In this document: in pieces, positions 19,835-60,695 of the stretch
Layout of the letters: the number at the start of each line of letters is the position of its first letter
Numbering within the stretch: the first letter of the stretch is position 1
Assembly: GCA_014859985.1 (NCBI GenBank)
Contig: JACZKN010000092.1
Coordinates: forward strand, 5,980-69,979
Length of the DNA: 64,000 nucleotides
Direction of reading: 5' to 3'
Origin: Candidatus Krumholzibacteriia bacterium
GTDB taxonomy: Bacteria > Krumholzibacteriota > Krumholzibacteriia > LZORAL124-64-63
Notes under the pieces: model-generated
Seen by the model: the letters and a program-made list of their open reading frames with translations, nothing else
What the model was told of the DNA's origin: nothing
Databases searched by the model: none
Made by a program: the position numbers and the translations under genes

Positions 19835-19892
19835 GTTCCAACCTCTCCATTCCGCCCCTTATCTGGGGCACCCAGCAGGCCTTGTAGCTCAC

Positions 19893-22003: not shown

Positions 22004-22012
22004 TTAGATTGG
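21988..22012. repeat. perfect 25-bp palindrome CCAATCTAAATGACATTTAGATTGG between divergent portal-side and capsid-side genes
   Basis: Read directly; both strands begin ORFs with ATG(A/T)CATTTAGATTGG because of the symmetry. Confidence 0.9.
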
Positions 22013-22024
22013 TCCGGTTTTCGC

Positions 22025-22049
22025 GGATGCATCACTACTGGATGCATGA
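22025..22049 (+). promoter_or_regulatory. direct repeats GGATGCAT(C/G)A x2 (each containing palindromic ATGCAT) overlapping the capsid gene start
   Basis: ggatgcatcactactggatgcatga read directly. Confidence 0.4.
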
Positions 22050-33969: not shown

Positions 33970-34766
33970 CCTACGACGTCCGCGAAAAGAGCCGGTACCT
34001 GGGCCAGCCCGTCGAGGGCTTCCGGTTCGCCCAAGGCAGCAACCTGTGGCTCTATACGTCGGCGGATCGGGCGATTACGCTGCCCGCTGGAGTGTTCGCG
34101 CCGGAAGCCATCACGCGCAGCGAGCTCGACTTCTCCCAGGAGGACACCGGCGAGACGATCGACCTGACGCTGCCGCGTCCGAGCCCGGTGGCCGCGCTGT
34201 TCATCGGAGACCTGCCATCCACTCCGGTCTGGGTGACGGTCTACCGCGCCCACCGCGGCGAAGAGTCGCTTGCCGTGACGATCTTCAGCGGCAAGGTGAT
34301 CCGCGCCCGCTTCGAGGAATCCGAAGCCATCCTCACCGGGGCGAGCCTGATGGCCATGCTATCCCGCACGGTGCCGATCCTGGCCATGCAGACCCCGTGC
34401 AACCACGTCCTCTACTCGGGAGCGTGCGGCGCTGACCCGGGCGTTTACCGTGATCAGGTTTCCGCCACGTCGGTGACCGGCGCGACCGTCGTCTCCAACG
34501 GGTTCGCTCTGCGCCCTGATCAGTGGTTCCGTGGGGGCCGTCTCGAATCCTCCACCGGCGAGACCCGCTTCATCGTCGACCACCAAGGCGACACCGTCAC
34601 GCTGATCTCCCCGATCCCAGGGCTGTCCTCTCTGGACCAGGTCTGGGCCTACTGGGGCTGCGACCATCTCGAGGCCACCTGCCGCGACAAGTTCAGCAAC
34701 CTGATCAACCACCTGGGCTGGTCGCGCCTGCCGGGCCGGAACCCATTCTCCGGGAGGATCGACTGA
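33966..34766 (+). CDS. gpL-like tail tip protein with C-terminal Cys motif (CNHVLYSGACG...C...C)
   Basis: Four Cys cluster then NLINHLGWSRLPGRNPF tail; immediately before the gpJ-like gene. Confidence 0.45.
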   Translation: MTYDVREKSRYLGQPVEGFRFAQGSNLWLYTSADRAITLPAGVFAPEAITRSELDFSQEDTGETIDLTLPRPSPVAALFIGDLPSTPVWVTVYRAHRGEESLAVTIFSGKVIRARFEESEAILTGASLMAMLSRTVPILAMQTPCNHVLYSGACGADPGVYRDQVSATSVTGATVVSNGFALRPDQWFRGGRLESSTGETRFIVDHQGDTVTLISPIPGLSSLDQVWAYWGCDHLEATCRDKFSNLINHLGWSRLPGRNPFSGRID

Positions 34767-37216
34767 TGGCCTTCTGGATCATGGCCCTGGTCTACATCGT
34801 CGGCACGGTGCTCTACGAAGTCCTTCGCCCCAAGCCGAAGTTCGACGCTCCGACACCGTCGAGCCTGGGCGACTTCCAGTTCCCGACGATCGGCGAGGGC
34901 CGGACCATTCCCGTCGTCTGGGGGACCTGCAAGCTCTCCGGACCCATGGTGACCTGGTACGGCGATCTGCGCATCCAGGCCATCAAGGAGAAGGTCAAGA
35001 CCGGGCTGTTCTCCTCAAAGGAAATCACCACCGGCTACAAGTACTACCTCGGCATCCAGCTGGTACTATGCAGTGGTGAGATCGACGAGGTCCTGCAGAT
35101 CCGGTTCGACGACAGGCGGCCTTCTGCAGGCTACGCCCACGTTCCGGATCTCACCCAGATCAGCATCAACGCCCCTGGCTTCTTCGGCGGCGAGGACTCC
35201 GAAGGCGGCGTCAAAGGCAGCGTCTACGTCTACCGCGGGACTCCCACCCAGCCGGCGGACTCCTACCTCGAGGCCCGTATCGGGGAGAGCCTGCCCGCCT
35301 GGCGAAGGGTCTGCTACGCCGTATTCCGGCGCGTCTACGTGGGGACGAGCCCCTACATCAAGGCCGTCTCGTTCGTCGTCCGGCGCTGCCCCAATGGCCT
35401 CGGTCTCACCGGCGGAGCCCACAACATCGATGGCGACGCCAATCCCGCAGCCATGATCTACGACATCCTGATCTCGCCGTCTTCGGAGAACGGTCTCGGG
35501 TTGCCGGTGGGGTTTCTGGATGTTGCCGCGTTTCGCTCGGTTGGACAGACGCTGGCCGACGAAGGCCTCGGACTTTCCATGCTCCAGGATCGCGGCACAA
35601 CAGCGAAGGACCTCGTCCTTGAGATCCTGCGCCACGTCGACGGCGTCATGTACGTGGAACCGGCGTCCGGCCTTCTGACGATCCGCCTGGTCCGGTACGA
35701 CTACGATCCCGAGGCGATCCCGGTGCTCGATGCGGACTCGTGCACGGTAAAGTCGTTTGCCCGGCCGTCGTGGGGTGACCTCAAGAACACCGTGCGAATC
35801 GGCTACGTCAGCCGTGACGCCGGGTTCATCGAGAAGACCGCCCAGGCCCAGGACCTCGCTGGGATCGAGGTGCAAGGCGGCGAGGTCTCACTCCAGGATC
35901 TCACCCTTCGTGGGCTCTCGAATGCGACGTCTGCCCAGCAGGCCGCAGCCCGTGCCCTGGCGGCTCTGGCCTATCCGCTGGCTACGATCACCATCGAGGC
36001 TGACCGCTCGGCTTGGGCGTTCCGGCCCGGGGCGGTATTCAAACTCGTCTGGGACCCGCTGGGGATTGCCGGTATGGCTTGCCGGGTGGTCCGTGTGGGG
36101 ACTGGCCGCCTCGACTCCGGGAAGATCGAGATCGAAGCCATGGAGGATATCTTCGCCGTGGACTGGACTGGCTACTCGACTCCGCCAGCGTCCGGTTGGG
36201 AAGACCCTTCCGGTGACGTCCCGGCACTGACCGACCAAGTTGCCCTGGCCGCACCCTATGAGGCGGTGAAGGATTACGGAAGCCTAGGTGCCGATGTGCA
36301 ACTGGCCATCACGCTCGCCGCTGCTGGGGTGACCGGGGTCTCCCTCGGATACCGGGCCTATGTGGCTGACGGCGCGGGCGGCTGGGCGCCACCGGTCGAT
36401 ATCCCGTTCTTCACTCCATCAGGGGTTCTCAGCACTGCGATCGACGAACTCACGAGCGAGATCGTCGTCGCCTCGGGTCTGGACACCGACCTCGTCGAGT
36501 CGGTCAGCGCGCCCGACTTTTCCCTCGGGGTGAGCGTCGCATGGGTGGCCCATGAGGGGGTGGAGGAGTTCATCGCGTTCCAGAACGTAGTGCAGGGCGA
36601 GAGCAACATCACGCTTCAGGTCATCGCGCGGGGGTGCCTCGATACTGCGCCGACTGCATTCTCGGCCGGGACGCGGGTGTGGTTCATCTCCTACGGCAAC
36701 CAGATCGTGAACATCCGCGGGCCGGTGCCTCCGACCATCAACGTCTACAACGACATCCGATTTCAGGCCTACAACAACCAGAGCGAGTTTCCGTTCACGT
36801 CGTGCCCGACATCGCAAGTCGTGGCGACCACGCCAGCGCGGTCAGTAAAGGTCTATTGCCCTACCGACCTGCGCTTCAACGGAGAGAGCTACCCGGCGTC
36901 CATCACGGGCGAACTGACAGTATCCTGGTCGCACCGGAATCGGCTCGGGACCTGGAGCTATGTCGACTCCGGCAAGACGACGTCATCCGAGCCGGGCACA
37001 GAATACGACGTCCTGGTCTACGGGGAGCTCGGCACGCTGGTTCACACCGAGTCGGGATTGACGGGCACGTCCTGGACCTACCTCGAGGCGACGGAGATCG
37101 CGGAGTCGGGGCTCGCGCGACTCAACGACCATCTGCGGGTGATCATTCGGACATACGGGGCGGGACGGACTCATGAGGCGATTCGCGAGATCGAGTGGAA
37201 TGTTGAACGTAACTGA
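34766..37216 (+). CDS. tail tip/host-specificity protein (gpJ-like)
   Basis: 897 aa, last gene of tail module. Confidence 0.55.
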   Translation: MAFWIMALVYIVGTVLYEVLRPKPKFDAPTPSSLGDFQFPTIGEGRTIPVVWGTCKLSGPMVTWYGDLRIQAIKEKVKTGLFSSKEITTGYKYYLGIQLVLCSGEIDEVLQIRFDDRRPSAGYAHVPDLTQISINAPGFFGGEDSEGGVKGSVYVYRGTPTQPADSYLEARIGESLPAWRRVCYAVFRRVYVGTSPYIKAVSFVVRRCPNGLGLTGGAHNIDGDANPAAMIYDILISPSSENGLGLPVGFLDVAAFRSVGQTLADEGLGLSMLQDRGTTAKDLVLEILRHVDGVMYVEPASGLLTIRLVRYDYDPEAIPVLDADSCTVKSFARPSWGDLKNTVRIGYVSRDAGFIEKTAQAQDLAGIEVQGGEVSLQDLTLRGLSNATSAQQAAARALAALAYPLATITIEADRSAWAFRPGAVFKLVWDPLGIAGMACRVVRVGTGRLDSGKIEIEAMEDIFAVDWTGYSTPPASGWEDPSGDVPALTDQVALAAPYEAVKDYGSLGADVQLAITLAAAGVTGVSLGYRAYVADGAGGWAPPVDIPFFTPSGVLSTAIDELTSEIVVASGLDTDLVESVSAPDFSLGVSVAWVAHEGVEEFIAFQNVVQGESNITLQVIARGCLDTAPTAFSAGTRVWFISYGNQIVNIRGPVPPTINVYNDIRFQAYNNQSEFPFTSCPTSQVVATTPARSVKVYCPTDLRFNGESYPASITGELTVSWSHRNRLGTWSYVDSGKTTSSEPGTEYDVLVYGELGTLVHTESGLTGTSWTYLEATEIAESGLARLNDHLRVIIRTYGAGRTHEAIREIEWNVERN

Positions 37217-37315
37217 TCAATGGAGATTGGGAACTAATATTGCCCGGCGATGTCCAAGCGGCCGTAACTGTTCGGAAAGACGAGCTTGCGAATTATAAGA
37301 CAGAAGGTATCTTGA

Positions 37316-37666
37316 TTGCCTATGGGCATTATGAAAACAGTTCTGATTGCGACTCTCTGGTCGCTCCTCCTGGCGCCGACGGCATGCCTTGCCGGCGCTC
37401 TGGACCATTTCTGCCCTTCCTGTCCAGAGACACCCTGCGAACACGAAGTTCATTGTTCGAGTGACCCCTGCAACATCACCGTGGTCCCCCTGCCCGACAG
37501 CCGGTGCAAAGGTGATTTGTCTTTGGACATAGATGCCAGCGTCCACGCTCTCGTCGAATTCGGCGGAATCGCCTCGACGCCTGGTGACGCTGCGCCCTTT
37601 GTGGCTGACCCGTGCGTCTCGCTTCCGCTGCCCCTGCCCTCCGGCTTTCCGCCTCTCCGCTGCTAG
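37316..37666 (+). CDS. small Cys/His-rich secreted protein (possible periplasmic metal-binding)
   Basis: Signal peptide MKTVLIATLWSLLLAPTACLAGA; CPSCPETPCEHEVHCSSDPC; TTG start in track, ATG at 37322/37331 also possible. Confidence 0.4.
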   Translation: MPMGIMKTVLIATLWSLLLAPTACLAGALDHFCPSCPETPCEHEVHCSSDPCNITVVPLPDSRCKGDLSLDIDASVHALVEFGGIASTPGDAAPFVADPCVSLPLPLPSGFPPLRC

Positions 37667-37759
37667 CCTCACCGCTGAAGACAACCCTGGATGATTCGTC
37701 GGGCCGATTCGTCGTGCCACGTCTTTAGGCTGCGCTGATCTCGGAAAAGGATTCAAACC

Positions 37760-39094
37760 ATGAAACTGCTTGGGCGCTTTCGCCTCGGGCAAGCGTTGGC
37801 GATCGTGACATTGCTGGTCACGCCGGTGTTCGCCGATGCCTCGCCACCCGACACCACCGCCATTCACCCTGTCCCCGTCCCGGAGATTACGGACGGCGAG
37901 GATATCACCGCGGTTCAGGCCGGTGCGCTGGCCTTGACCCGTAGCCCTCGCCTGGCGGTTTACGATTTCGAACGCAGGATTCGGGATGCGCGCACTCTCC
38001 AGGCCGCCTTGCGCCCCAACCCGGAACTCGCTTTCGAAGTGGAGAACTTCGCGGGATCCGGTGACCTGTCGGGCTTCGGCGGTTCCGAACTCACCCTTTC
38101 GGTGGCCCAGCTGTTCGAGCTTGGCGGCAAGAGGTCCAATCGTCGAGAAGTCGCCCGCTTCGAACGCAAACTGGCGACCTGGGACTACGAAGCTGTCCGT
38201 CTTGAGGTCCTCAGCGATGTGTCACGGGCCTTCGTCGAGGTAGTCGCCGCTCAACTGCGGATCGCGCTCGCGGATGACCTGATCGAGACTGCCAAGCAGG
38301 ACCTCGTCGCCGTCGGCCGGCGTGTCGAGGCCGGAGCAGCTTCGCCGATCGAACGGACGCGTGCCCGGATCGCCCTGGCCACCGCGGAAATGGACCGCGA
38401 AACCGTGGCACTCGCACTGACTGCCGCCCGGGTCCGGTTGGCGACGACATGGGGTTCCGACCAGCCGAAATACGGCCGCGCCGTGGGCGACCTCGAACAG
38501 GTCGCACCGCCCCCGACGGCGTCAATGTTGGAGCAACGCCTGACAACGAACCCCGACATCGCACGCTGGGCGACCGAGCAATCCCTGCGCGAGGCATCCC
38601 TGAATCTGGAGCGTTCCCTGGGGAAGATCGACCTCGTCGCCTCTGGCGGATTCAGGCGTCTTGAGGAATCCGGAGACAACGCCTTCGTGGCCGGAATCGC
38701 GATTCCGCTGCCGGTTGCCAACCGGAATCAGGGGAACGTCCAGGCCGCCGCTCTCGAACTGGCCAAGGTCGAGAAGGAACGTCTGGCAGCAACCAGTACC
38801 GCGCAGGCGGCGCTGGCATCGGCGTACGCTGACCTCTCTGCCGCCTTCAAGGCCGCAACCACGCTCAGAGAAGAAATCCTACCGGCCGCCGAGGAAGCCA
38901 TGGCGACCGCCGAGAGTGCCTACCTGAAAGGCCTCTTCAACTTCACCGATGTTTTAGCTGTCCGCACGACCTATCTCGATCTGCGGGAGCGTCATATCGC
39001 GTCCCTCGCCAGCTACCACATTGCCCTCGCCGAGCTCGAGCGCGTCGTCGCCGGGCCTCTGAGTCAGGTCGAGAACAACCAGGAGCGTCCGTAA
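37760..39094 (+). CDS. czcC: outer-membrane efflux protein (CzcC/TolC family)
   Basis: Signal peptide; OMF-family repeats; first gene of HME-RND operon. Confidence 0.7.
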   Translation: MKLLGRFRLGQALAIVTLLVTPVFADASPPDTTAIHPVPVPEITDGEDITAVQAGALALTRSPRLAVYDFERRIRDARTLQAALRPNPELAFEVENFAGSGDLSGFGGSELTLSVAQLFELGGKRSNRREVARFERKLATWDYEAVRLEVLSDVSRAFVEVVAAQLRIALADDLIETAKQDLVAVGRRVEAGAASPIERTRARIALATAEMDRETVALALTAARVRLATTWGSDQPKYGRAVGDLEQVAPPPTASMLEQRLTTNPDIARWATEQSLREASLNLERSLGKIDLVASGGFRRLEESGDNAFVAGIAIPLPVANRNQGNVQAAALELAKVEKERLAATSTAQAALASAYADLSAAFKAATTLREEILPAAEEAMATAESAYLKGLFNFTDVLAVRTTYLDLRERHIASLASYHIALAELERVVAGPLSQVENNQERP

Positions 39095-39095
39095 C

Positions 39096-40082
39096 ATGAA
39101 ACCGACGAGCTTTCCCATCCTAGAACGCAGGTTCGTGAATCAGGCCGCACTTGTTCTGCTGGCCCTCTCCCTGGCGATGCCGCAACTGTCCGCTCTGGCG
39201 CAGGAACCGGGTCACGAGGCCCACGGCGACGAACAGGGGCACGACGAAGAAGGACACGAGGAGATCGTGAGTCTCAGCGCCGAAGAGATGCGTGAATTCG
39301 GCATCGTCGTCGCCGAAGCCGGCTACGCCACCCTCACGAGCAGCGTCGACCTACCCGGTGAGATCCAGACCAACGACAACATGCTCGCCCACATCGTCCC
39401 ACGCTTTTCCGGCATCGTGACCGACGTGCGTGCTCAAATCGGCGACAAAGTCGCGGCTGGTCAGGTTCTCGCCGTAATCGAAAGCGACGAGAGTCTGTCT
39501 CCCTACGAGGTCAAGACCCTCATCGCCGGCACGGTCATCGCCAAGCACATTACGCTTGGCGAGGCGATCTCGCGGGAGCATGCCGCCTTCGTCGTCGCTG
39601 ATCTCAGCTCCGTCTGGGCGGACATCACGGTCTATCAGCGGGACATCAGCACAGTGGCAGTCGGCCAGGATGTCCAGATCTCCGGGGGACACGCCCACCC
39701 GGCCGTGACCGGCGCGATCTCCTATGTCGCTCCTGTCATCGACGAGGAAACCAGAACCGCCTTGGCGAGGGTCATTCTGCCCAATCCGGGAGGCACCTGG
39801 CGTCCCGGCACGTTCATCACGGCCCGAATCCTCCTCGAAAGCTTCGTCGTGCCCGTCGCCATCCCGCGGACGGCGCTACAGCACTTCGAAGATCAGGACG
39901 TCGTCTTCGTTCAGACCCCGGAAGGCTTCATGCCCAGACCCGTGACCGTCGGACGGTCGGATGAGAACACGCTCGAGATCGTCTCGGGCCTCGCAGCCGG
40001 TGAAAACTACGTATCCCAGGGTGGGTTCACGCTCAAGGCGGAACTCGGCAAGGGATCCTTCGGCGGCGGTCACGCGCACTGA
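39096..40082 (+). CDS. czcB: RND periplasmic adaptor (CzcB/HlyD family) with His-rich N-terminus
   Basis: EPGHEAHGDEQGHDEEGHEE metal-binding stretch; MFP fold segments. Confidence 0.7.
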   Translation: MKPTSFPILERRFVNQAALVLLALSLAMPQLSALAQEPGHEAHGDEQGHDEEGHEEIVSLSAEEMREFGIVVAEAGYATLTSSVDLPGEIQTNDNMLAHIVPRFSGIVTDVRAQIGDKVAAGQVLAVIESDESLSPYEVKTLIAGTVIAKHITLGEAISREHAAFVVADLSSVWADITVYQRDISTVAVGQDVQISGGHAHPAVTGAISYVAPVIDEETRTALARVILPNPGGTWRPGTFITARILLESFVVPVAIPRTALQHFEDQDVVFVQTPEGFMPRPVTVGRSDENTLEIVSGLAAGENYVSQGGFTLKAELGKGSFGGGHAH

Positions 40083-40096
40083 TTGGAGATGACGCC

Positions 40097-43000
40097 ATGC
40101 TCGAACGAATGATCGAATTCGGCCTGAAGAACCGCCTGTTGGTGCTCATCATCGCACTGATAGTGATGGGTGCCGGCTATGCCGGCTACACGCGCCTGCC
40201 GGTCGACGCCTTCCCGGACGTCTCGCCCAATCTCGTCCAGGTCTTCACGGTGACCGAGGGCCTCGCGCCCGAGGAGATCGAGAAGTACGTCACCTTCCCC
40301 GTCGAAGCCGCCATGACAGGTCTGCCGGGCACCGCCAAGGTCCGGTCGGTGTCCAACTTCGGATTGTCCGTGGTCAACGTCTACTTCCGCGACGATGTGA
40401 ACATCTACTTCGCCCGGCAGCTCGTCGGCGAACGCCTGCAGGAAGCCCGAGAACAGATCCCCGAAGGATTCGGCGACCCCCAGATGGGCCCGATCTCCAC
40501 CGGCATGGGGCTCGTCCTCTTCTACTACCTGGAGGATACTACCGGCGAGTACTCGCTTGAGGATCTGCGCACGATCCAGGATTGGCTGATCAAGTTCCAC
40601 CTGCAGACCGTGCCCGGGGTCACCGAGGTTCTCGGCATCGGGGGCTTCGAGAAACAGTACCAGATCAGGATCCGACCCGAGCAGCTCCTGCGCTACGACG
40701 TCACCCTGGACGATGTGATCGCTTGCGTGCGCTCCAACAACCTCAACGTCGGCGCGCAGTTCATCGAGAAGAACTCCGAAGAGTTCATCGTCCGTTCCGT
40801 CGGGCTGGCGACCGGCATGGAGGATCTCAGCTCGATCGTCGTCAAGACCGTCGACGGGACCCCCATCTTCCTGTCCGATCTAGCGGAGATCGGATCCGGC
40901 GGCGCGATTCGTCGCGGACTGCAGACCCGCAACGGCACCGGAGAGGTGGTTTCCGGACAGGTGGTCAAGCTCTTCGGCGCCAACTCGTCCACCGTGATCG
41001 GCCGTGTCGAGTCCAAGCTCGAGGAGATCAACAAGATCCTGCCCGATGGGGTACGCATCGTTCCCTACTACGAGCAGAAATCGCTCGTCGAGGCCGCCGT
41101 CAAGACCGTGATCAACGCGCTATTGCAGGGTGTCGTTTTGGTGACGATCGTCCTGCTTGTCTTCATGGGCGGTCTGCGCCCGAGCATCGTGGTCGCCCTC
41201 TCGCTGCCGTTCTCGGTGCTCTTCGCGTTCCTGCTGATGGAACGCTTCGGCGTCTCGGCCAACCTCATGTCGCTCGGCGGCCTGGCGATCGCAATCGGGA
41301 TGATGGTCGACGGTACCATCGTCATGGTGGAGAACATCGACCGCCGGTTGCGGATCGCACCGCCGGACATGACCCGTCTGCGGACCATCTCGCTCGCCTG
41401 CGCGGAGGTCGGCCGTCCCATCCTGTTCGCTATCACCATCATCATTCTCGTCTTCGTGCCCCTGTTCACGCTCCAGGGCGTCGAGGGGAAAACCTTCCGG
41501 CCGCTGGCCTACACCGTGACCATGGCCATGCTGGGATCGCTCATCTTCGCCCTGCTTCTGGCGCCGACCCTGAGCAGCCTCCTGATGCGGGTCCGCCGGC
41601 GCGATGACTCCGACGGTGACGGTGAAGCCCTGGTGGTACGCTGGCTCTTGAAACCGTATCGGCCCGTCGTCCAGTTCTTCGTCCGGCGTAGCTGGGCGGC
41701 CATCGCAATCGCGGTGGTTCTGATGGTGGCCGGCGCAGCGGTGGTTCCTCGCCTCGGTTCGGAGTTCACGCCCAAGCTGCGCGAGGGGACCATCGTCGCC
41801 CGTCTGACGATGGCGCCCTCGATCTCGCTGACCGAGAGCCAGCGGACGGCGCAGATCGTCGAGCGGCGCCTGATGGCGATTCCCGAGGTCCGGGAGGTCG
41901 TTACCCGCATCGGCCGCGGTGAGGTCGGGGCACACACCGATCCCATCAACAGCGCCGAGATGTACGTGATCCTCCGTCCTGAATCCGAGTGGCGCGTCGC
42001 CGGAGGCCAGGAAGCCATCGAGGACGTCATCCGCGACGAGGTCGGCAACGTGCCCGGCGTCCTGGTCAACCTGACCCAGCCCATCGAGATGACGGTGGAT
42101 GAACTCCTGGAGGGCGTCCGCGCCGAGCTCGCCGTGAAGATCTTCGGCGACGATCTCGACGTCCTCAAGGAACGCGCGGCGGAGATCGCGGCCGTCGTCG
42201 GCTCCGTTCCCGGCGCCGCCGACGTCCAGGTCGACCAGGTCAGCGGCGCTCCCCAGCTGCTCCTGCGTATCGACCGGAAGGCGATCGCCCGCTACGGGAT
42301 CAACGTCGACGAGGTCCAGGGAGTCATCCGGGCCGCGGTGGGCGGCGAGGTCGCCGGACAGATCTACGAGGGGATCCGTCGCTTCGACATCCTGGTCCGT
42401 TTCGTCCCCGAGGCTCGCCAGACCGCCGAGAGCATCGGCCACATCCTCATCACCGCCCCGGACGGGGCCCGGGTGCCGCTGGACCAACTGGCCTCCATCG
42501 AGGAGATCGTCGGACCCCGGCAGATCACCCGCGAGGACAACCAGCGGTTCATCTCCGTGCAGTGCAACGTCGTCGATCGCGACATCGGCTCGTTCGTCGC
42601 CGACGCACAGGACGCGATCGATGCCTCGGTCGAACTGCCGCCGGGTTACCTCGTGACCTGGGGCGGACAGTTCCGCCTGCAGCAGGAAGCGAACCGCCGC
42701 TTCGCCGTGGTTATTCCGGCGACGCTGTTGCTGGTCTTCCTCCTGCTGTTCGGCAACTTCGGTTCGATCCGCAACTCCATCCTGATCCTGCTGAACATCC
42801 CGCTGGCCCTGGTCGGCGGCGTGGTCGCGCTGTGGCTGACGGGCCAAAACCTTTCGGTCCCGGCATCAGTAGGCTTCATCGCCCTGTTCGGCATCGCCCT
42901 GGAGAACGGCATGGTGCTGGTGACCTACCTCAACCAGCTGCTGCGCGACGGGCTACCCGTCGCCGAGGCCTCCATCCAGGGCGCGTGCCAGCGCCTGCGC

Positions 43001-43195
43001 CCGGTCCTGATGACCGCGATCACCACGGCGCTCGGTCTGTTTCCGCTGCTCTTCTCGCACGGAACCGGCAGCGAGGTCCAGCGTCCGCTGGCCACCGTTG
43101 TCGTCGGAGGCCTGGTAACATCCACGATTCTCACCCTGCTCGTGATCCCGGCCTTCTACAAGTGGTTTGCGGTCAAGGTTGAGCACGAGGTCTAA
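40097..43195 (+). CDS. czcA: heavy-metal efflux RND permease (CzcA/CusA family)
   Basis: 1032 aa, 12-TM RND architecture, HME-type sequence throughout. Confidence 0.8.
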   Translation: MLERMIEFGLKNRLLVLIIALIVMGAGYAGYTRLPVDAFPDVSPNLVQVFTVTEGLAPEEIEKYVTFPVEAAMTGLPGTAKVRSVSNFGLSVVNVYFRDDVNIYFARQLVGERLQEAREQIPEGFGDPQMGPISTGMGLVLFYYLEDTTGEYSLEDLRTIQDWLIKFHLQTVPGVTEVLGIGGFEKQYQIRIRPEQLLRYDVTLDDVIACVRSNNLNVGAQFIEKNSEEFIVRSVGLATGMEDLSSIVVKTVDGTPIFLSDLAEIGSGGAIRRGLQTRNGTGEVVSGQVVKLFGANSSTVIGRVESKLEEINKILPDGVRIVPYYEQKSLVEAAVKTVINALLQGVVLVTIVLLVFMGGLRPSIVVALSLPFSVLFAFLLMERFGVSANLMSLGGLAIAIGMMVDGTIVMVENIDRRLRIAPPDMTRLRTISLACAEVGRPILFAITIIILVFVPLFTLQGVEGKTFRPLAYTVTMAMLGSLIFALLLAPTLSSLLMRVRRRDDSDGDGEALVVRWLLKPYRPVVQFFVRRSWAAIAIAVVLMVAGAAVVPRLGSEFTPKLREGTIVARLTMAPSISLTESQRTAQIVERRLMAIPEVREVVTRIGRGEVGAHTDPINSAEMYVILRPESEWRVAGGQEAIEDVIRDEVGNVPGVLVNLTQPIEMTVDELLEGVRAELAVKIFGDDLDVLKERAAEIAAVVGSVPGAADVQVDQVSGAPQLLLRIDRKAIARYGINVDEVQGVIRAAVGGEVAGQIYEGIRRFDILVRFVPEARQTAESIGHILITAPDGARVPLDQLASIEEIVGPRQITREDNQRFISVQCNVVDRDIGSFVADAQDAIDASVELPPGYLVTWGGQFRLQQEANRRFAVVIPATLLLVFLLLFGNFGSIRNSILILLNIPLALVGGVVALWLTGQNLSVPASVGFIALFGIALENGMVLVTYLNQLLRDGLPVAEASIQGACQRLRPVLMTAITTALGLFPLLFSHGTGSEVQRPLATVVVGGLVTSTILTLLVIPAFYKWFAVKVEHEV

Positions 43196-43214
43196 GCCAT
43201 GAAGGAGAGCAGTC

Positions 43215-43553
43215 ATGAAGGAGATCAAAGCCTACATCCAGACGCACAAGCTGGCGGACGTCACCTCGGCGCTCCATCGCATCGAGGGGGTGACGGGGAT
43301 GAGCATCGTGGACTGCCGCGGCTTTGGTGCGGGCTGGGCCGGCACGGAACACGCGTCCGACTCCGAAACGTTCAGCTATCGAAAAGGCGTGAAGATCGAG
43401 GTATTCTGCCGGGATGACCTCGCCGCGGACATCATGGCAGCAATCGAGCAGGCGGCACACACCGGTTTGAAGGGGGATGGGAAGATTTACGTCGCGGACA
43501 TTTCGCACGCGGTTCGTATCAGCACCGGCGAGACCGGTGAAGCTGCCGTGTGA
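43215..43553 (+). CDS. P-II (GlnB)-like small regulatory protein associated with metal efflux operons
   Basis: MKEIKAYIQTHKLADVTSALHRIEGVTGMSIVDCRGFG, PII-like fold signature. Confidence 0.55.
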   Translation: MKEIKAYIQTHKLADVTSALHRIEGVTGMSIVDCRGFGAGWAGTEHASDSETFSYRKGVKIEVFCRDDLAADIMAAIEQAAHTGLKGDGKIYVADISHAVRISTGETGEAAV

Positions 43554-43583
43554 GACCGTCCGCGACGAGAAAGGGCCGCCACC

Positions 43584-44489
43584 ATGGGACACGGACATTC
43601 GCATCACCCGGACCCTGAACAGACCGGAGACCGTCGACTGCTTGCCGCCATCGTTGTCAACGTCCTGCTGACCGGCGCTCAGGTGGTCGGCGGGGTCATC
43701 TCGGGCAGCCTGTCCCTGGTGGCGGACGCCTTGCACAACCTGAACGACGCCGCGTCTCTTGGTATCGCCCTGATTGCGCGTCGAATTGCGCGTCGGCCGG
43801 CAGACAAGGTTCGCACCTTCGGCTACCGGAAAGCCGAGGTGATCGGTGCCCTGATCAACACGACGACGCTGATCATTGTCGGCCTTTACCTCGTCTATGA
43901 AGCGGTCGCCCGCTTCCTGCAGCCCGAGCCCATCGACGGGTGGATCGTTGTCATCGTCGCGAGCTTCGCTCTTGTCGTGGATCTCGCCACTGCCCTGATG
44001 ACCTTCTCGATGGCCAAAGAGAACATCAACATCAAGGCCGCCTTCGTCCACAACGTCGCGGACGCCCTCGGATCGCTCGTCGTCATCTGCGTCGGCATCG
44101 TGGTCCTGGCGTTTCAATGGTACGTCGCCGATCTCATCGCGACCCTCCTCCTGGCCGGCTACATCCTGTTTCAGGGATATCGGCTGATGGCGGAGTCGGT
44201 CCGCATCCTGATGGACAGCGTCCCGGCCGACCTGGATCGCGATGGCATCGCAGCCCGGATGGCGGCCGTTCCCGGGGTCCACGACGTGCATCATGTCCAC
44301 ATCTGGCAGATCGATGAGCACCACCGCGCGCTCGAGGCCCACATCGTTGCCCAGGCAGGTCCCGAGGATGCCGAGGCGATCAAGCGAGCGCTGAAGGAAC
44401 TGCTTCGCCAGGAATTCGCGATCGCTCACACCACTCTCGAGTTTGAGTCGCGTGGGGTATGCGACAACGAAAGTGGACCATGCGCCTGA
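43584..44489 (+). CDS. czcD: cation diffusion facilitator (CzcD-like)
   Basis: N-terminal His-rich MGHGHSHHPD, six TM, CDF signature SLVADALHNLNDA. Confidence 0.75.
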   Translation: MGHGHSHHPDPEQTGDRRLLAAIVVNVLLTGAQVVGGVISGSLSLVADALHNLNDAASLGIALIARRIARRPADKVRTFGYRKAEVIGALINTTTLIIVGLYLVYEAVARFLQPEPIDGWIVVIVASFALVVDLATALMTFSMAKENINIKAAFVHNVADALGSLVVICVGIVVLAFQWYVADLIATLLLAGYILFQGYRLMAESVRILMDSVPADLDRDGIAARMAAVPGVHDVHHVHIWQIDEHHRALEAHIVAQAGPEDAEAIKRALKELLRQEFAIAHTTLEFESRGVCDNESGPCA

Positions 44490-44774
44490 GGGTCCACGTC
44501 GGTCCCGCCGCCCATCGTCTCCGCAAGACTACCTTCTGAGCTGGACCTGACCGGCACGCTCTGCCCGCACGGATCGTCGTTGTACTCAACAATTTGTCGT
44601 TGCCTGACTGCGATGTCCCCAAAATCCGTGGTCACCCCCCCTTTTACCAGCAGGAGCCCACGTGGTCGGCGACGTATCGACGTGCCGGGCGAGATCCGAC
44701 ACATCTGCTTGCCGCGGGGTAGGTAACCGAGAGAGGCAGGCCCGCCCACGCGCGGCCACAGGTTAGGCGCAGGA

Positions 44775-45083
44775 GTGACGATGTTCCGCAACGAGGCGCT
44801 TGAACGAGGCAGGTTCAAGCGCGTCCCCGATCGCTGGCAGACCGAGTTCGGCCGCTGGGTGGCCGACTTCGGTGTGCCCCGCATCGTCGCTGGCCTGGCC
44901 CAAGACCCTGACCTCCGCGTCACCAACCAGGCTGTCTACGAGTGGCTCCAGGGCCACGCCCCTCACCCGGCCCGCGCCATGGCCCTCGTCGAGATGTCCC
45001 GGGGGCGCCTCACCCTCGAGGTCATCTACGAGCACAGCCGACAGGTCAAGCAGTCCGAAGGCGAAACCGGAGGACCGCGATGA
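44775..45083 (+). CDS. hypothetical protein, possible HTH regulator
   Basis: 102 aa; PRIVAGLAQDPDLRVTNQAVYEWL helix-turn-helix-like. Confidence 0.3.
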   Translation: MTMFRNEALERGRFKRVPDRWQTEFGRWVADFGVPRIVAGLAQDPDLRVTNQAVYEWLQGHAPHPARAMALVEMSRGRLTLEVIYEHSRQVKQSEGETGGPR

Positions 45084-45745
45084 GGATCGACCTGAAGATC
45101 GACTCCGCCCCGCTGGTCTTGCGCCTGCAGAACGGCCAGCGCCGCCTGGCCTACGCCGTCGTCAACGCCATCAACAACACGGCGAAACGCATCCAGGCCG
45201 TCGAACGTCGGCGCGTCGAGGAAGAGTTCACGATCCGCAAGAAGGAGTTCATCCGGCGCCAGGCCGCCGTCATCAAGCCATTTGCCAACGTGAAGCAAGG
45301 TCGGCCCTACGCCGAGATCGGGGTGGGCCAGAAGCCCCGCCTCCTTCTCTCCGCCTTCGAGCGCGGAGCCGAACGCAAGCCGTTCACGCAGGGTGCTCGG
45401 CGCGTGGCCGAGCCCGTGGTCGGCGGGCCCGCGCGTCCGCGGTTCACGCAGCCCGTCCCACCCGAACTGCGGATCAGGAAGCTGCGCTTCGACCGCACCA
45501 AGACGGGCCGTCGCCGCGTCGGTGTCACCCGCACCAAGACCTACCTCGTCCCCGAGGTCGGGATCTTCCAGCGCATCGGTCCCGCAGCCACGCGCCTCGT
45601 CTACGCCTTCACCCGTGGCAAGAAGCTCGAGCCCCGTCTGCGGTTCGTCGCCACGGCCAAGAAGGAGTCCGACCGCTGGTTCCGCGAGGAGATGGAGCAG
45701 GAAGTCCTGGGCGCCATCGCCCGGGCGAAGGGACGGGGCCTGTGA
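45080..45745 (+). CDS. hypothetical phage protein
   Basis: 221 aa, basic; ATGA overlap. Confidence 0.35.
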   Translation: MRIDLKIDSAPLVLRLQNGQRRLAYAVVNAINNTAKRIQAVERRRVEEEFTIRKKEFIRRQAAVIKPFANVKQGRPYAEIGVGQKPRLLLSAFERGAERKPFTQGARRVAEPVVGGPARPRFTQPVPPELRIRKLRFDRTKTGRRRVGVTRTKTYLVPEVGIFQRIGPAATRLVYAFTRGKKLEPRLRFVATAKKESDRWFREEMEQEVLGAIARAKGRGL

Positions 45746-45873: not shown

Positions 45874-47370
45874 ATGAAACGAGTTTCCACCGATACCAAG
45901 TGTTCCAGTTCCGCCGAGTCCAAGAAGGCCGCAAACGCGCCAGAAACGGCCTCTACGGGCGATTCCGCGCGTTCCGAGTCTCCTGTGATCCTGCCCGGAA
46001 AACTGGAACACTGGAACATCGACCGGCTCCGCCCCTACGAGCGGAACCCGCGCACGCACAGCCCCGAGCAGATCACCAAGATCGCCGCCAGCCTCCTCGA
46101 GTTCGGCTGGACCAACCCGATCCTGGTCGACGGCGAGGCGGGCATCATCGCGGGTCATGGCCGGCTCCTGGCCGCCCGCGAGCTGGACATGACCACGGTC
46201 CCGGTGATTGAACTCACCCACCTGACCGAGGCCCAGAAGCGAGCCTACGTCATCGCCGACAATCGGCTTGCCCTGGACGCCGGCTGGGACGAGGACCTGC
46301 TGGCCGAGGAACTGAAGGCCCTCGAGGACCTCGACTTCAACCTCGAGCTGACCGGCTTTGATCTGGACGAGCTGCACGACCTCCTGGACGACGAGACCGT
46401 CGAGGATGCCCCGGCCCCGGAGCCTCCCGAGGAACCCACCAGCCGGCAGGGCGACCTGTGGGTCCTGGGCAACCACCGCCTGTTGTGCGGCGACAGCTGC
46501 GATCCCGCGTCGGTCGACCGTCTGCTCGGTGGCCAGAAGATCCACCTCGTGAACACCGACCCGCCGTACAACGTGAAGGTCGAACCGCGATCCAACAACG
46601 CCATCGCCGCCGGCTTGTCCAGCTTCCCGCCGTCCACCAAAAGCGCCGTCGAGGCCTCCGATTCCCGCGGCATGCACCATCAGGGATTCGACCTCGCCCG
46701 GCACAAGACCAAATCCAAACCGACCGGCAAGATGCGCCCCAAGGACCGCCCTCTGGCCAACGACTTCGTCTCGGACGAGGCCTTCGACGAGATGCTCCTG
46801 GCCTGGTTCGGGAACATCGCCCGCGTGCTGCAGCCGGGGTGCTCGTTCTACATCTGGGGCGGCTACGCCAACTGCGCCAACTATCCCCCGGTCCTGAAGG
46901 CCTGCGGTCTGTACTTCAGCCAGGCGGTCATTTGGGTGAAAGAGCACCCCGTGCTCACCCGCAAGGACTACATGGGCAACCACGAGTGGGCGTTCTATGG
47001 CTGGCGTGAAGGGGCAGGGCACAAGTTCTACGGGCCGACCAATGCCGTCGATGTCTGGGCGGTCAAGAAGGTCAACCCCCAGAGCATGGTCCACCTGACC
47101 GAGAAGCCGGTCGAACTGGCCGTACGCGCTATCCAGTACTCGTCGAAGCCCGGTCAGAACGTGCTCGACCTGTTCGGCGGCAGCGGTTCGACCCTGATCG
47201 GTGCCGAGCAGACCGGCCGGCATGCGTTCCTCATGGAACTCGATCCCGCCTACACCGACGTGATCGTGATGCGCTGGCAGGAGGCCACCGGCCAGAAGGC
47301 CACGCTCGACGGCGACGGCCGGACGTTTGACGAGATCGCTGCCGACCGCAGGGCCGACCGGGATGAGTAG
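45874..47370 (+). CDS. ParB-like nuclease domain fused to DNA methyltransferase
   Basis: N-terminal ParB-N (ILVDGEAGIIAGHGRLLAAREL); C-terminal MTase motifs VNTDPPYN and LDLFGGSGST. Confidence 0.7.
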   Translation: MKRVSTDTKCSSSAESKKAANAPETASTGDSARSESPVILPGKLEHWNIDRLRPYERNPRTHSPEQITKIAASLLEFGWTNPILVDGEAGIIAGHGRLLAARELDMTTVPVIELTHLTEAQKRAYVIADNRLALDAGWDEDLLAEELKALEDLDFNLELTGFDLDELHDLLDDETVEDAPAPEPPEEPTSRQGDLWVLGNHRLLCGDSCDPASVDRLLGGQKIHLVNTDPPYNVKVEPRSNNAIAAGLSSFPPSTKSAVEASDSRGMHHQGFDLARHKTKSKPTGKMRPKDRPLANDFVSDEAFDEMLLAWFGNIARVLQPGCSFYIWGGYANCANYPPVLKACGLYFSQAVIWVKEHPVLTRKDYMGNHEWAFYGWREGAGHKFYGPTNAVDVWAVKKVNPQSMVHLTEKPVELAVRAIQYSSKPGQNVLDLFGGSGSTLIGAEQTGRHAFLMELDPAYTDVIVMRWQEATGQKATLDGDGRTFDEIAADRRADRDE

Positions 47371-47373
47371 GCG

Positions 47374-47937
47374 GTGGCCAGGGGAGCAAAGAAGGAGCTG
47401 ATCTCGCAGCGCGAGTACGCCCGCAGGCGCGGCTTGACCCACGTCGCGGTTCAGCGTGCCGTGAAGGCAGGCCGGATCTCGACCGTGAATGGGAAGATCG
47501 ACCCTGCGCTCGCCGACCAGCAGTGGCAGGAGAACACCGACCAGAGCAAGCCCCGCAATCGGATCACCGGTAACCCCAAGCAGACCAAGGCACCAGGTGA
47601 ACCATCTGAACCCATGGACATGGGCGGAGCCGATGAAATCGTCGGAGGCTCGTCGACGGCCACCGGATATGCCAAGGCCCGCGCCGCTCGCGAGCTCTAC
47701 CAGGCGCAGCTGGCGAAGCTCGAGTTGGACCGCAAGCGCGGCACCCTCGTGCGCGCCGACGAGGTGCGTCTCGGCGCATTCAACATGGCCCGCAAGGCCC
47801 GCGATCAGTTGATCGCCTTGCCCGAGCGCCTGGCCTCCGTCCTAGCTGCTACAGAGGAGCCCGCCGAGGTCCAGCGCATCCTCGAGGAAGAGATCGAGCG
47901 GATCTGCCAGGAGATCGCGGATGCAGAACGGCCGTGA
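47374..47937 (+). CDS. terminase small subunit
   Basis: HTH ISQREYARRRGLTHVAVQRAVKAGRI; precedes TerL. Confidence 0.55.
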   Translation: MARGAKKELISQREYARRRGLTHVAVQRAVKAGRISTVNGKIDPALADQQWQENTDQSKPRNRITGNPKQTKAPGEPSEPMDMGGADEIVGGSSTATGYAKARAARELYQAQLAKLELDRKRGTLVRADEVRLGAFNMARKARDQLIALPERLASVLAATEEPAEVQRILEEEIERICQEIADAERP

Positions 47938-49771
47938 CACGTATGAGACCGCCTACCGGGCGGGCTGGCGGCCGGAGCCGCGGCTGACGGTCAGCGAGTG
48001 GGCCGACGAGCACCGCGTGCTGGGCAACCGCTCGGGCCATGCCGCGGTGCACTGGCACACCGACACGACGCCGTACCTGCGCGAGATCATGGACGCTCTG
48101 GGCCCACGGTCTCCGGCCCGCCGGGTCGTGTTCATGAAGGGTTCGCAGCTTGGCGGCACCGAGGCGGGCAACAACTGGCTCGGGTACGTGATGCACCACG
48201 CGCCCGGGCCGATCCTCGTCTTGCGCCCCACCGTGGACGAGGCCCGGCGGTTCAGCCGGCAGCGCCTCGATCCCATGATCGCCACCACGCCCGTGCTCCA
48301 CGAGCTGGTCCGCGAGGCGCGGTCCCGCGACGGCGGCAACAGCCTCCTGATCAAGGAGTTCCCCGGCGGGGTCCTATTCCTGACCGGCTCGAACTCCGCG
48401 ACCGGCGTCAAGTCGATGCCGATCCGCTGGCTCTTCTGCGACGAGATCGACGAGTACCCAGGCGATGTCGACGGGCAGGGCGACCCGATCTCGCTAGCTG
48501 AGAAGCGCACCACCGGCCCCCTCTACTCGCGCCGCAAGGTGTTCCTGGTCTCGACGCCCACGGTCAAGGGCATCTCACGGATCGAGCGGGAGTTCCTCGC
48601 GTCGGACCAGCGGCGGTACTTCGTCCCCTGCCCCGAGTGCGGCCACTTCGACTGGATGCGGTGGGAGAACATCCGATGGCGTGACGACGACCCCAAGACC
48701 GCCGCCATGGCCTGCGTCCACTGCGGCGTCCTGATCGAGGAGCGCTTCAAGCCCCAGATGCTCAATCAGGGGCAATGGCGCCCCACCGCGAAGGGCAACG
48801 GCGAGACGATCGGGTTCCATCTGTCCAGCCTCTACTCGCCGCTGGGCTGGCTGCCATGGTCGGCCACCGTCGCTGAATTCGTGGAGTCCAAAGAGAACCC
48901 ACTCCGGCTGAAGAACTGGGTCAACAGCGTGTTGGGCGAGACCTGGGAAGAACGCGGCGAGACCGTCGACCCGGACAGTCTGCTGGCCCGGGCGGAGCGG
49001 TACGAGGCCGAGGTGTCCACTGGCGTGGGTGTGCTCGTGGCCGCGGTCGACGTGCAGGGTGACCGCCTCGAGTGCGCCGTGAAGGGGTACGGCGCCGCTG
49101 AGGAGTCCTGGCTTGTCGCCTTCTCCCAGTTCCACGGCGATCCGGGGCGCGACCAGGTCTGGCTCGACCTCGACCGCTTCTTGCGAACCGAGTTTGCCCA
49201 CGAGAGCGGCCAGAAGGTCCCGATCTCCTGCGTCGCCGTCGACAGCGGCGGTCATCACTCCGAGCAGGTCTACCGGTTCTGCCGCGCCCGGATCGACCGG
49301 CGAGTGTTCGCCGTTCGTGGTGGCTCCGAACGGGGCAAGCCGCTCGTGGGCCGCCCGTCCGATCACAACCGCTACCGGGCGAAGCTGTTCACCCTCTGCG
49401 TCGACACCGGCAAAGAGATCGTCTACTCGCGGCTGCGCATCGGGTCACCCGGACCCGGCTACTGCCACCTGCCCGAGTGGATCGACGAGGAGTACATCGC
49501 CCAGCTTACCGCCGAGAAGGCCATCCGCAAATGGATCAAGAACCGCGGCACGGTGCGCGAGTGGGTCAAGACCCGCGATCGCAACGAGGCCCTCGACCTC
49601 GAGGTCTACTGCCTGGCCGCCCTCCACATCCTGGGACCCGCCTTCGTGAAGTCCTTGCCCGAGCGCGCAGCGGCCCTGGCCAATCTGCGCGAGGTGCCTG
49701 TCGCGGCCGAGCCGGAGCCGAGCATGCCTTTGCGGCGCCCCCGGGGGTGGATCGATGGCTGGCGAGGGTAG
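47921..49771 (+). CDS. terminase large subunit, lambda gpA family
   Basis: 616 aa; GpA-type N-terminal ATPase (LTVSEWADEHRVL...TPYLREIMDAL) and C-terminal nuclease. Confidence 0.7.
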   Translation: MQNGRDTYETAYRAGWRPEPRLTVSEWADEHRVLGNRSGHAAVHWHTDTTPYLREIMDALGPRSPARRVVFMKGSQLGGTEAGNNWLGYVMHHAPGPILVLRPTVDEARRFSRQRLDPMIATTPVLHELVREARSRDGGNSLLIKEFPGGVLFLTGSNSATGVKSMPIRWLFCDEIDEYPGDVDGQGDPISLAEKRTTGPLYSRRKVFLVSTPTVKGISRIEREFLASDQRRYFVPCPECGHFDWMRWENIRWRDDDPKTAAMACVHCGVLIEERFKPQMLNQGQWRPTAKGNGETIGFHLSSLYSPLGWLPWSATVAEFVESKENPLRLKNWVNSVLGETWEERGETVDPDSLLARAERYEAEVSTGVGVLVAAVDVQGDRLECAVKGYGAAEESWLVAFSQFHGDPGRDQVWLDLDRFLRTEFAHESGQKVPISCVAVDSGGHHSEQVYRFCRARIDRRVFAVRGGSERGKPLVGRPSDHNRYRAKLFTLCVDTGKEIVYSRLRIGSPGPGYCHLPEWIDEEYIAQLTAEKAIRKWIKNRGTVREWVKTRDRNEALDLEVYCLAALHILGPAFVKSLPERAAALANLREVPVAAEPEPSMPLRRPRGWIDGWRG

Positions 49772-60041: not shown

Positions 60042-60257
60042 CTACGGAGTCGTGCTCTTTCTACCTTGATCGTGTCGCTCGTTTAATGTGCGGCAGTTCC
60101 GACACACGCACGCTACCGGGAGACCAACGAGATACTCGTGGCCGCGAGCGAAGCGGATGTGCAACCGATCACCCCGCGATACAGCGAGGAGTCTTCCGCA
60201 GTTCGCGCATCGCCAATCGTCTGAGCCGGCGTCGCCCGCTCGGCATTTCGCGGCCAT
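60042..60257 (-). CDS. small zinc-finger protein (Com-like)
   Basis: CANCGRLLA...HIRF...CVCRNCRTLN; start at internal ATG 60257. Confidence 0.3.
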   Translation of the reverse strand: MAAKCRAGDAGSDDWRCANCGRLLAVSRGDRLHIRFARGHEYLVGLPVACVCRNCRTLNERHDQGRKSTTP

Positions 60258-60682: not shown

Positions 60683-60695
60683 ATTGTTGACTACC

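Follow-up and report, generated by a model that had tools for sequence, protein, structure and literature searches.

A czc-type metal-efflux operon as likely cargo in a hypervariable slot of a temperate prophage

Gene content and layout of the cassette

In the window, the 64,000-nucleotide stretch of contig JACZKN010000092.1 analyzed here, six plus-strand genes lie side by side at 37322 to 44489, as identified from the open reading frame (ORF) list and from Pfam and NCBIfam profiles. They encode a small secreted Cys/His-rich protein, a heavy-metal efflux resistance-nodulation-division (HME-RND) set made up of an outer-membrane factor (OMF), a periplasmic adaptor or membrane fusion protein (MFP), and an inner-membrane pump, and then a PII-like protein and a cation diffusion facilitator (CDF). 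Comparison with related loci makes it likely that this cassette is an efflux operon of the czc type for divalent cations, which one temperate siphovirus-type prophage carries in a hypervariable slot as lysogenic-conversion cargo. The genes are as follows.

37322 to 37666, plus strand: small secreted Cys/His protein, leader gene of the cassette; 114 amino acids (aa), 9 Cys, 4 His, hydrophobic N terminus
37760 to 39094, plus strand: OMF, CzcC/TolC-like (PF02321 OEP, E = 2e-39)
39096 to 40082, plus strand: His-rich periplasmic adaptor, CzcB-like MFP (HlyD_D23, E = 2e-33)
40097 to 43195, plus strand: HME-RND inner-membrane pump, 1032 aa (end-to-end match to ACR_tran; TIGR00914)
43215 to 43553, plus strand: PII-like protein of the PII-NG type, 112 aa (PF00543, E = 8e-18)
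43584 to 44489, plus strand: CDF transporter, ZitB/CzcD-like, 301 aa (Cation_efflux and ZT_dimer)

Starting with the OMF gene, neighboring genes are 1 to 30 nucleotides (nt) apart, an operon-like spacing. The OMF, MFP, and RND genes are adjacent and co-directional (gaps of 1 and 14 nt) and make up a tripartite RND efflux set. The small gene stands 93 nt before the OMF gene and begins 105 nt after the stop codon of a phage tail-tip gene. A sequence-only reading of this DNA had described an HME-RND set, a PII-like protein, and a CDF transporter preceded by a small secreted Cys/His protein. All six genes were recovered essentially where it had placed them, with full domain matches for the set, and the secreted protein does come first, but its start is the ATG at 37322, the position 37316 given earlier being an upstream TTG. 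The same reading had put the genes between the tail-tip and packaging genes; this is right in substance, except that three conserved phage genes separate the CDF gene from those of the terminase subunits TerS and TerL.

A promoter-like block, TTGCGA-N16-TATCTT, is present at 37286 to 37313 (plus strand) and ends 8 nt upstream of the start codon (ATG) of the small gene. The pattern TTGCGr-N16/17-TAtCnT is kept upstream of the small gene in the window and in the related loci L073, L072, L105, and L006 (L numbers denote loci of our collection), and the block travels with the cassette in phage and nonphage contexts. We infer that it is the cassette's own putative promoter. Terminators were found at background level only. 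A scan of the window and of the slot described below with Rfam gave no RNA elements and, therefore, no metal riboswitch.

The cassette occupies a hypervariable slot between conserved phage genes

The cassette is bounded on both sides by phage genes. The features that define its position are given here in order.

34766 to 37216, plus strand: tail-tip/host-specificity protein (Phage-tail_3), 77 to 100% identical in 44 loci; the slot is bordered on the left by its stop codon
37217 to 44690, no strand assigned: hypervariable cargo slot, 1.65 to 9.0 kb in 24 loci, with unrelated contents
44696 to 44728, plus strand: promoter-like motif CCGACACATC-N-GGGGTAGGTAACC at the right border of the slot, conserved; homology between loci resumes here
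44787 to 45083, plus strand: Cro/YdaS-like protein, 98 aa, first gene of an operon toward the terminase genes; conserved in 21 aligned loci
45080 to 45745, plus strand: 221-aa conserved phage protein, 74 to 95% identical in 24 loci (phrog_1924, E = 3.5e-12)
45874 to 47370, plus strand: ParB-domain DNA methyltransferase (N6_N4_Mtase and ParB_N)
47374 to 47937, plus strand: terminase small subunit TerS (phrog_57, E = 1e-33)
47921 to 49771, plus strand: terminase large subunit TerL (GpA_ATPase and GpA_nuclease)

Using the tail-tip protein as the query, we collected 44 related loci, at 45 to 100% identity, from genome and viral collections. All 24 loci that show both sides have the same order of tail-tip gene, variable slot, Cro-like gene, and gene for the 221-aa protein, and the ParB-methylase, TerS, and TerL genes follow downstream wherever a related locus reaches them. 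The Cro-like protein itself matches P22_Cro and YdaS weakly (E = 0.064, below threshold). The loci cease to be homologous at the stop codon of the tail-tip gene (37216) and become so again at CCGACACATC...GGGGTAGRTAACC, about 60 to 90 nt upstream of the Cro-like gene. Between these borders the 24 loci hold about 19 distinct contents, and the slot thus qualifies as an accessory hotspot.

The window type of cassette fills the slot in the window, L001, L002, and L006. Three further, nonorthologous HME-RND cassettes sit in the same slot on the opposite strand: CDF, RND, MFP, and OMF in L004; an RND with the canonical DFGLIVDGAVIIVEN motif, PII, MFP, OMF, and EamA in L017; and a ZntA-like P1B ATPase, PII, RND, MFP, and OMF in L008 and L018. 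The slot pumps of relatives all score above the TIGR00914 cutoff (801 to 1594 bits), and the L008/L018 ATPase exceeds that of TIGR01525. Additionally, L036 has a CDF gene and an RND fragment. These pumps are 38 to 45% identical to the window pump, whereas homologues of the window pump on metagenome contigs without phage genes are 64 to 83% identical to it, which implies that the cassettes were captured independently.

Other slots hold unrelated cargo. A 40.6-kb viral contig has a 2.4-kb Na+/H+ exchanger module instead of czc, and further contents include a subtilase/beta-helix protein, proteins with type IX secretion system (T9SS) sorting signals, a radical-SAM enzyme with a binding protein, a YaaC-like protein, and the defense-related IrrE/M78 peptidase (capP/RmrA-like), RelA/SpoT-like protein (PADLOC PDC-S33), MkoA-like helicase, and HerA with a methylase. 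The sequence-only reading had proposed a check for conservation of the cargo in related prophages; the same type of cassette is found in L001, L002, and L006, but elsewhere the slot carries different HME-RND sets or unrelated cargo. Two minus-strand ORFs at 43173 to 44429 and 44426 to 44926 (the "C0" cluster) were rejected as Arg/Gly/Pro-rich shadow translations, in two frames, of the Cro-like gene.

Exchange of the cassette between phages and selection on it

The window and L002 agree at 99 to 100% identity over a block that opens with the tail-tip gene, at about 34800, and closes in the middle of the CDF gene, at about 44000; the flanks are at 83 to 93%. This difference between block and backbone indicates that a 9-kb piece comprising the tail-tip gene and czc recently moved between two backbones by homologous recombination. 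Since the right breakpoint is inside the CDF gene, both parents would have carried czc.

The slot of L006 is filled by a cassette of the window type that is 68 to 83% identical to the window in nucleotide sequence. Between the two, the ratio of nonsynonymous to synonymous divergence (dN/dS) is 0.10 for the RND, 0.11 for the CDF, and 0.24 for the OMF gene, at a dS of 0.85 to 1.19 for the cassette and 0.72 for the tail tip. Ratios this low at a dS of about 1 argue for long residence under purifying selection and not for decay. This bears on the alternative that survives best, although we still think it improbable, namely, that the cassette is a neutral or decaying passenger of no benefit to host or phage. 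The effect of the cassette is predicted from its genes, it has no dedicated regulator, and the slot tolerates any content, all of which a passenger would explain. However, constraint of this kind between two phage-resident copies is not expected of a passenger, none of the six ORFs is broken, the domain matches are full-length, and metal-efflux sets have been captured independently at least four times in the one slot. Such repeated capture of differing metal pumps points to strong, recurrent selection for metal tolerance via phages.

Movement of the tail-tip gene and czc as one block is also what would be seen if the cassette chiefly served the phage, with the OMF altering receptor availability or excluding superinfecting phages, and the defense-related cargo of other slots (MkoA-like, HerA with methylase, PDC-S33, capP/RmrA-like) goes in the same direction. 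Physical linkage suffices to explain the cotransfer, however, and the complete pump, the CDF transporter, and the ZntA-like ATPase of relatives point to metal export, while a receptor role of the OMF has no support. We therefore hold this explanation to be quite unlikely.

Remnants of the 3' end of the tail-tip gene lie inside the slot beside metal-efflux cargo in L073 (972 to 1020) and L036 (13264 to 13371). These short pieces resemble scars left when cargo was exchanged by recombination in that gene. An insertion borne by a transposon or integron, instead of phage-managed cargo, would fit the common travel of metal-resistance operons on transposons and the IS110 element that adjoins the operon in the closest annotated plasmid relative. 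Against it, there is no transposase, integrase, or recombinase in the slot, nor are there terminal inverted repeats or target duplications, and the search for inverted or direct repeats flanking the slot gave short chance matches only. The cassette is exchanged by homologous recombination in the tail-tip and CDF genes, and this, together with the tail-gene remnants, makes a mobile-element origin just as unlikely as a phage-serving role.

The flanking phage genes belong to one prophage

The window encodes the following further parts of the prophage.

17703 to 64000, no strand assigned: part of the prophage that the window covers; homology across the family begins at 17703 on the left, and the element continues past the right window end
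19893 to 21401, minus strand: portal protein, lambda family (PF05136, E = 6e-85), divergent from the capsid gene; orientation conserved in 25 loci
22046 to 24025, plus strand: prohead protease-major capsid fusion (Phage_capsid and Peptidase_S78)
27004 to 29562, plus strand: tape-measure protein (Tape_meas_lam_C)
63772 to 64000, plus strand: N terminus of a large serine recombinase (integrase), truncated by the window end

Homology to 13 related loci ends at 17703 to 17721, and homology to relatives resumes at 63639 to 64000. Because the integrase gene is cut off at the window end, the prophage extends beyond it. A full-length 513-aa orthologue of the integrase (L089 1 to 1542) matches TP901-1 and SPbeta-type integrases, with TP901-1 integrase and YokA as its matches in the PDB. 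The window element also encodes a connector, a primase-polymerase, a helicase, and RusA, and it has the makeup of a temperate tailed phage: one collinear element with genes for terminase, portal, capsid, tail, replication, and integrase. Related prophage loci are embedded in contigs of 4.7 Mb, 1.04 Mb, and 0.9 Mb. No near-identical DNA was found in phage or plasmid collections, and the window has no tRNA genes.

The 40.6-kb contig mentioned above, from IMG/VR and rebuilt from three overlapping loci, is collinear with window positions 17703 to 60003 at 85 to 94% identity, except in the cargo slot and at 18930 to 19915. From this collinearity and the synteny of the 24 loci, it follows that the phage genes on either side belong to one prophage, and we regard the cassette as very probably the genuine cargo of that prophage. 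The sequence-only reading had named the outcome that would overturn it, two separate degraded phage elements with an ordinary chromosomal czc locus between them. Some data lean that way, in that OMF-MFP-RND-PII arrays are common on contigs without phage genes (up to 450 kb) and IMG/VR splits the two sides into the entries 3300015370_001130 and 3300015370_001131. Nevertheless, the two sides are neighbors, in constant order, in 24 loci regardless of the slot contents, one viral contig spans both, the structural and replication ORFs are all intact, and the IMG/VR entries end exactly at the slot gene boundaries, as provirus trimming would leave them. Two remnants are thus very improbable. A metagenomic assembly chimera of phage and host contigs is equally so, for although all of the data come from metagenome assemblies and multicopy phage families promote misassembly, the same tail-czc-phage junctions recur in the Logan assembly L001 (100% identical) and in GenBank metagenome-assembled genome (MAG) contig JAHJTW010000022.1 (L002), a diverged cassette of the window type fills the slot in L006, and both borders fall exactly where homology to relatives ends and resumes.

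The two split entries (L075 and L042) come from one metagenome and end exactly at the slot borders, at the equivalents of window positions 44781 and 37216, and several other IMG/VR entries stop 3 to 34 nt past the tail-tip stop codon. It seems that provirus trimming removes large host-like cargo and leaves the phage in two pieces, and surveys of trimmed proviruses may undercount such cargo. Doubts about phage-borne resistance operons in metagenomes are common and stem from host DNA contaminating viral contigs; bracketing by conserved phage modules in many relatives sets this cassette apart from the claims so doubted.

Family membership and likely substrate of the transporters

The pump scores 1094.6 bits on TIGR00914 (CusA/CzcA; cutoff, 701.45), which places it in the HME-RND family, and it falls below the cutoffs of the multidrug RND models. 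Its closest PDB structures, matched over the full length, are ZneA (4K0E; 704 bits) and CusA (3K07; 640 bits), so ZneCAB and CusCBA are its best relatives of solved structure. Of the residues taken to be metal sites of ZneA, three are kept (D602 as D615, E610 as E621, and D658 as E669) and two are not (D654 is M665 and E136 is L139); this mixed result was given no weight in assigning the substrate. The motif in transmembrane helix 4 (TM4) reads AIGMMVDGTIVMVEN, i.e., AIG-DGT-VEN. By comparison, CzcA of pMOL30 has DFGIIIDGAVVIVEN (DFG-DGA-VEN) and CusA has AVGAMVDAAIVMIEN (AVG-DAA-IEN), and the published TM4 signature of HME1/HME2 (CzcA, CnrA, NccA) is DFG-X3-DGA-X3-VEN (PMC3637150). Cu(I)/Ag(I) pumps of the CusA type (HME4) are marked by three periplasmic methionines (M573, M623, and M672 of CusA). 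The periplasmic porter segment of the window pump is closer to ZneA and the TM4 segment is closer to CusA, and the substrate class is therefore ambiguous.

The best NCBIfam match of the OMF is IhpA, at 236 bits, which is under the equivalog cutoff. The adaptor passes the general RND_mfp model TIGR01730 (110.8 bits; cutoff, 94.9) and falls short of the CzcB/NccB subfamily model TIGR00999 (146 bits; cutoff, 319.3). It has 12 His residues, in an N-terminal run, HEAHGDEQGHDEEGHEE, and in a C-terminal GGGHAH. The CDF transporter passes TIGR01297 (245.5 bits; cutoff, 82.35) and stays below the ZitB equivalog (197 versus 408); it has HxxxD pairs in TM2 and TM5 (HNLND and HNVAD) and a His-rich N terminus. 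The His-rich adaptor, the ZitB-like CDF transporter with HD-HD sites, and the IhpA/IhpB-like partners suggest that the substrates are divalent cations.

The small Cys/His protein represents a family tied to efflux operons

The small protein has no Pfam or NCBIfam match. A word-indexed search for its family gave 8 clusters, and an exhaustive profile search gave 289 representatives at an E value of 1e-3 or less, putting the family at 289 or more sequence clusters. Nearly all of the listed members are 108 to 117 aa long, and every member whose source name was looked up is labeled "hypothetical." C22, H29, C31, E42, C45, D48, P49, C50, P111, and L112 are invariant, C39 and H41 are almost so, and a C-terminal LPL[LI]C is usual; the family motif can be written H-x-C...C-x-HE-xx-C-xx-DPC. 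We examined 10 independent gene contexts, namely, the window, L006, L072, L073, L105, and five distant members on contigs without phage genes. In every one of them the small gene is directly upstream of, and co-directional with, the OMF gene of an efflux operon, and genes for a CzcB-type adaptor and an RND pump follow wherever the contig is long enough. Two of those operons are near genes for MerR-type regulators, metal ATPases, or MerT/CopZ.

The position resembles that of CzcI, which quenches or modulates the CzcCBA pump (PMC10127602). An hhalign comparison of a 30-sequence family profile with CzcI of pMOL30 gave no support for homology (probability 0.45%, E = 0.13), and what the two share is position, length (114 versus 115 aa), and an N-terminal hydrophobic segment only. 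As a hypothesis by analogy, the small protein may be a periplasmic partner of this operon type that is CzcI-like in position, and it could be a periplasmic component so far overlooked in many HME-RND operons. The sequence-only reading had called the Cys-rich protein poorly understood. That still applies insofar as the family is unnamed and its looked-up members are all labeled hypothetical, but it now stands as a sizeable family tied to efflux operons, off phages as well as on them.

The other three HME-RND cassettes of the slot also begin with a small ORF, of 137 to 140 aa (L004 10163 to 10585, L017 18968 to 19381, and L008 21196 to 21615). These leader ORFs have a hydrophobic N terminus and His- or Cys-rich stretches, and two end in VLRC or VLRL, compared with PPLRC in the window. 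They were rejected as relatives of the small protein, since hhalign detected no homology and there was no Pfam match; the likeness is one of composition and position only. Small flanking "hypothetical" genes in the same positions on a Defluviicoccus plasmid were likewise unrelated to the window family.

The PII-like gene is a regular partner of this operon type

The PII-like protein scores 74 and 70 bits on the GlnB and GlnK equivalogs, compared with cutoffs of 202 and 181, and is thus not a canonical GlnB/GlnK. Its T-loop reads GAGWAGTEHASDSETFSY, without Tyr51 and the RQKG motif, while the PII body is retained and the B-loop AHTGLxGDGKIY is conserved. Among 42 RND-linked PII homologues the T-loop differs in sequence and in length. 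Of the 80 nearest RND homologues, which are on contigs without phage genes, about half are followed directly by a PII gene. A published group, PII-NG, clusters with czc genes (PMC7726332). By its PF00543 fold and its location in a czc-type cluster, the window protein fits this czc-linked class. The sequence-only reading had grouped it with the poorly understood accessories; it is, rather, no oddity.

Proposed mechanism and points that weigh on it

The cassette's own promoter, just before the small gene, would drive its transcription in the lysogen without dependence on the late operons, which are silent there. Cytoplasmic cations of the Zn/Co/Cd type would be carried into the periplasm by the CDF transporter, and the trimeric RND pump, with the His-rich adaptor and the outer-membrane channel, would use the proton gradient to drive them out across the outer membrane. 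A cytoplasmic PII-NG trimer could tune transport by adenylate or metal status, and the small Cys/His protein, a positional analogue of CzcI, could serve as a periplasmic metal-binding modulator or chaperone of the pump. The host would gain metal tolerance, and the prophage would gain a fitter host. We find it reasonably probable, though less so than the cargo status itself, that the cassette confers metal efflux on the lysogen in this way.

Several results count against this picture or limit it. The cassette has no metal-responsive regulator, although one is likewise absent from the czr and ncz operons of Caulobacter (PMC3637150), and a strict sigma-70 scan found zero promoters and did not pick up the block at 37286 to 37313. 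The TM4 motif of the pump matches neither the HME1/HME2 signature nor the CusA motif, so that any assignment of the substrate, and even of its valency, is tentative. An AlphaFold2 model of the small protein made with 8 sequences was unusable (pLDDT 44, pTM 0.18). The right end of the prophage is outside the window, and the host is known by MAG labels only, which disagree with one another.

A wider proposal can be made only tentatively. The phage family, widespread in uncultured bacteria, might be a dedicated shuttle of heavy-metal efflux, and the leader gene might represent a new, unnamed class of metal-binding periplasmic Cys/His partners of HME-RND pumps that do the job of CzcI and are unrelated to it.

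Relation to known systems

The czcNICBADRSE cluster of Cupriavidus metallidurans pMOL30 (NC_007971; PMC10127602) has the same core order of small secreted protein, OMF, adaptor, HME-RND pump, and CDF transporter (czcI-C-B-A-D), and the window proteins are 32% (CzcC), 41% (CzcB), 41.5% (CzcA), and 35% (CzcD) identical to its products. Unlike pMOL30 czc, the window cassette is without CzcN, CzcRS, and CzcE and has a PII-like gene between the pump and CDF genes. The leader is nonhomologous to CzcI, TM4 reads AIG-DGT-VEN and not DFG-DGA-VEN, and the carrier is a prophage and not a megaplasmid. Geobacter sulfurreducens likewise has a PII gene within a czc RND operon, PII-NG-czcABC (GSU2134-2137; PMC7726332, citing Sant'Anna et al. 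2009), and both PII proteins combine a noncanonical T-loop with a retained nucleotide-binding B-loop. The Geobacter gene is first in its operon, whereas the window gene is downstream of the pump and carried by a phage, and its class assignment is by fold and context.

Metal-resistance genes are known from Paracoccus prophages, which carry ZntA, ZitB, and ArsB (PMC6536676), and Co/Zn/Cd RND genes are known from a soil viral contig (PMC8240259); the cargo reported from these sources includes AcrAB-type efflux (PMC6536676; PMC8240259). The earlier view of phage-borne metal resistance as notable cargo holds for a complete operon with conserved phage genes on both sides, but the category as such had already been reported. 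Compared with those cases, the present locus has a complete six-gene tripartite set, conserved phage modules on either side, one slot with four different HME-RND sets, and hosts that are uncultured and nonproteobacterial. What is added is the repeated capture of HME-RND sets in one slot, the phage-to-phage transfer of a cassette, and the definition of the leader-protein family. The locus may thus be taken as a well-supported example, from environmental lineages that are poorly known, of a temperate phage with a complete set of tripartite metal-efflux genes.

Hotspots with variable cargo have been described for P2 and P4 (PMC9122126). Like them, the window slot has a fixed position between conserved phage genes and rapidly exchanged, unrelated cargo that includes defense genes. 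It differs in belonging to another phage family, in lying between the tail-tip gene and the Cro-like gene, and in taking up, beyond defense systems, large transport operons of up to at least 9 kb.

Hosts and further features of the prophage family

Among the MAG labels for the hosts, those of long contigs include Eiseniibacteriota and Krumholzibacteriota, and those of short contigs name several other phyla. Other labels for carriers of the phage family include Fibrobacteraceae, Verrucomicrobia, Planctomycetota, Thioalkalivibrio, Desulfocapsa, and Spirochaetaceae. Tail-protein identity across the MAG loci L002 to L022 is 77 to 93%, and two MAGs have three copies each. The mixed labels could reflect misbinning, polylysogeny, or an unusually broad host range. 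In the left flank of the window, an MvdD-type ATP-grasp protein and a T9SS sorting-domain protein are encoded on the minus strand (1978 to 3012 and 4272 to 5279); T9SS sorting domains here and in neighboring cargo hint at a host of the FCB group (Fibrobacterota-Chlorobiota-Bacteroidota).

A defense-type island on the minus strand at 7950 to 17526 adjoins the left border of the prophage at 17703 and has a GC content of 58.6%, compared with 66% for the phage. It encodes a TIR-domain protein (PADLOC PDC-S66/bSEFIR-like), a UvrD-like helicase, a 953-aa N6/N4 methylase, and a 1125-aa ResIII/endonuclease protein. Within the prophage, the minus-strand portal and connector genes (window 19893 to 22046) diverge from the protease-capsid gene, at a spacing of only 42 bp, and lie about 25 kb from TerS, TerL, and a W-like gene. 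This unusual layout is kept in all 25 related loci (25/25). The prophage family has two further variable spots, at window positions 18930 to 19915 and about 60220 to 63640; the latter adjoins the integrase gene and here holds a gene for a 686-aa QueC-like protein (phrog_1550).

Finally, the 51,972-bp IMG/VR contig 3300010429_002739 (L039, L083, and L051) starts and ends inside the conserved structural module and is not a simple circle. About 23 kb, with a different serine recombinase, lies between the right part of one copy and the next left border. The contig represents either two neighboring related prophages or an assembly broken at repeats.

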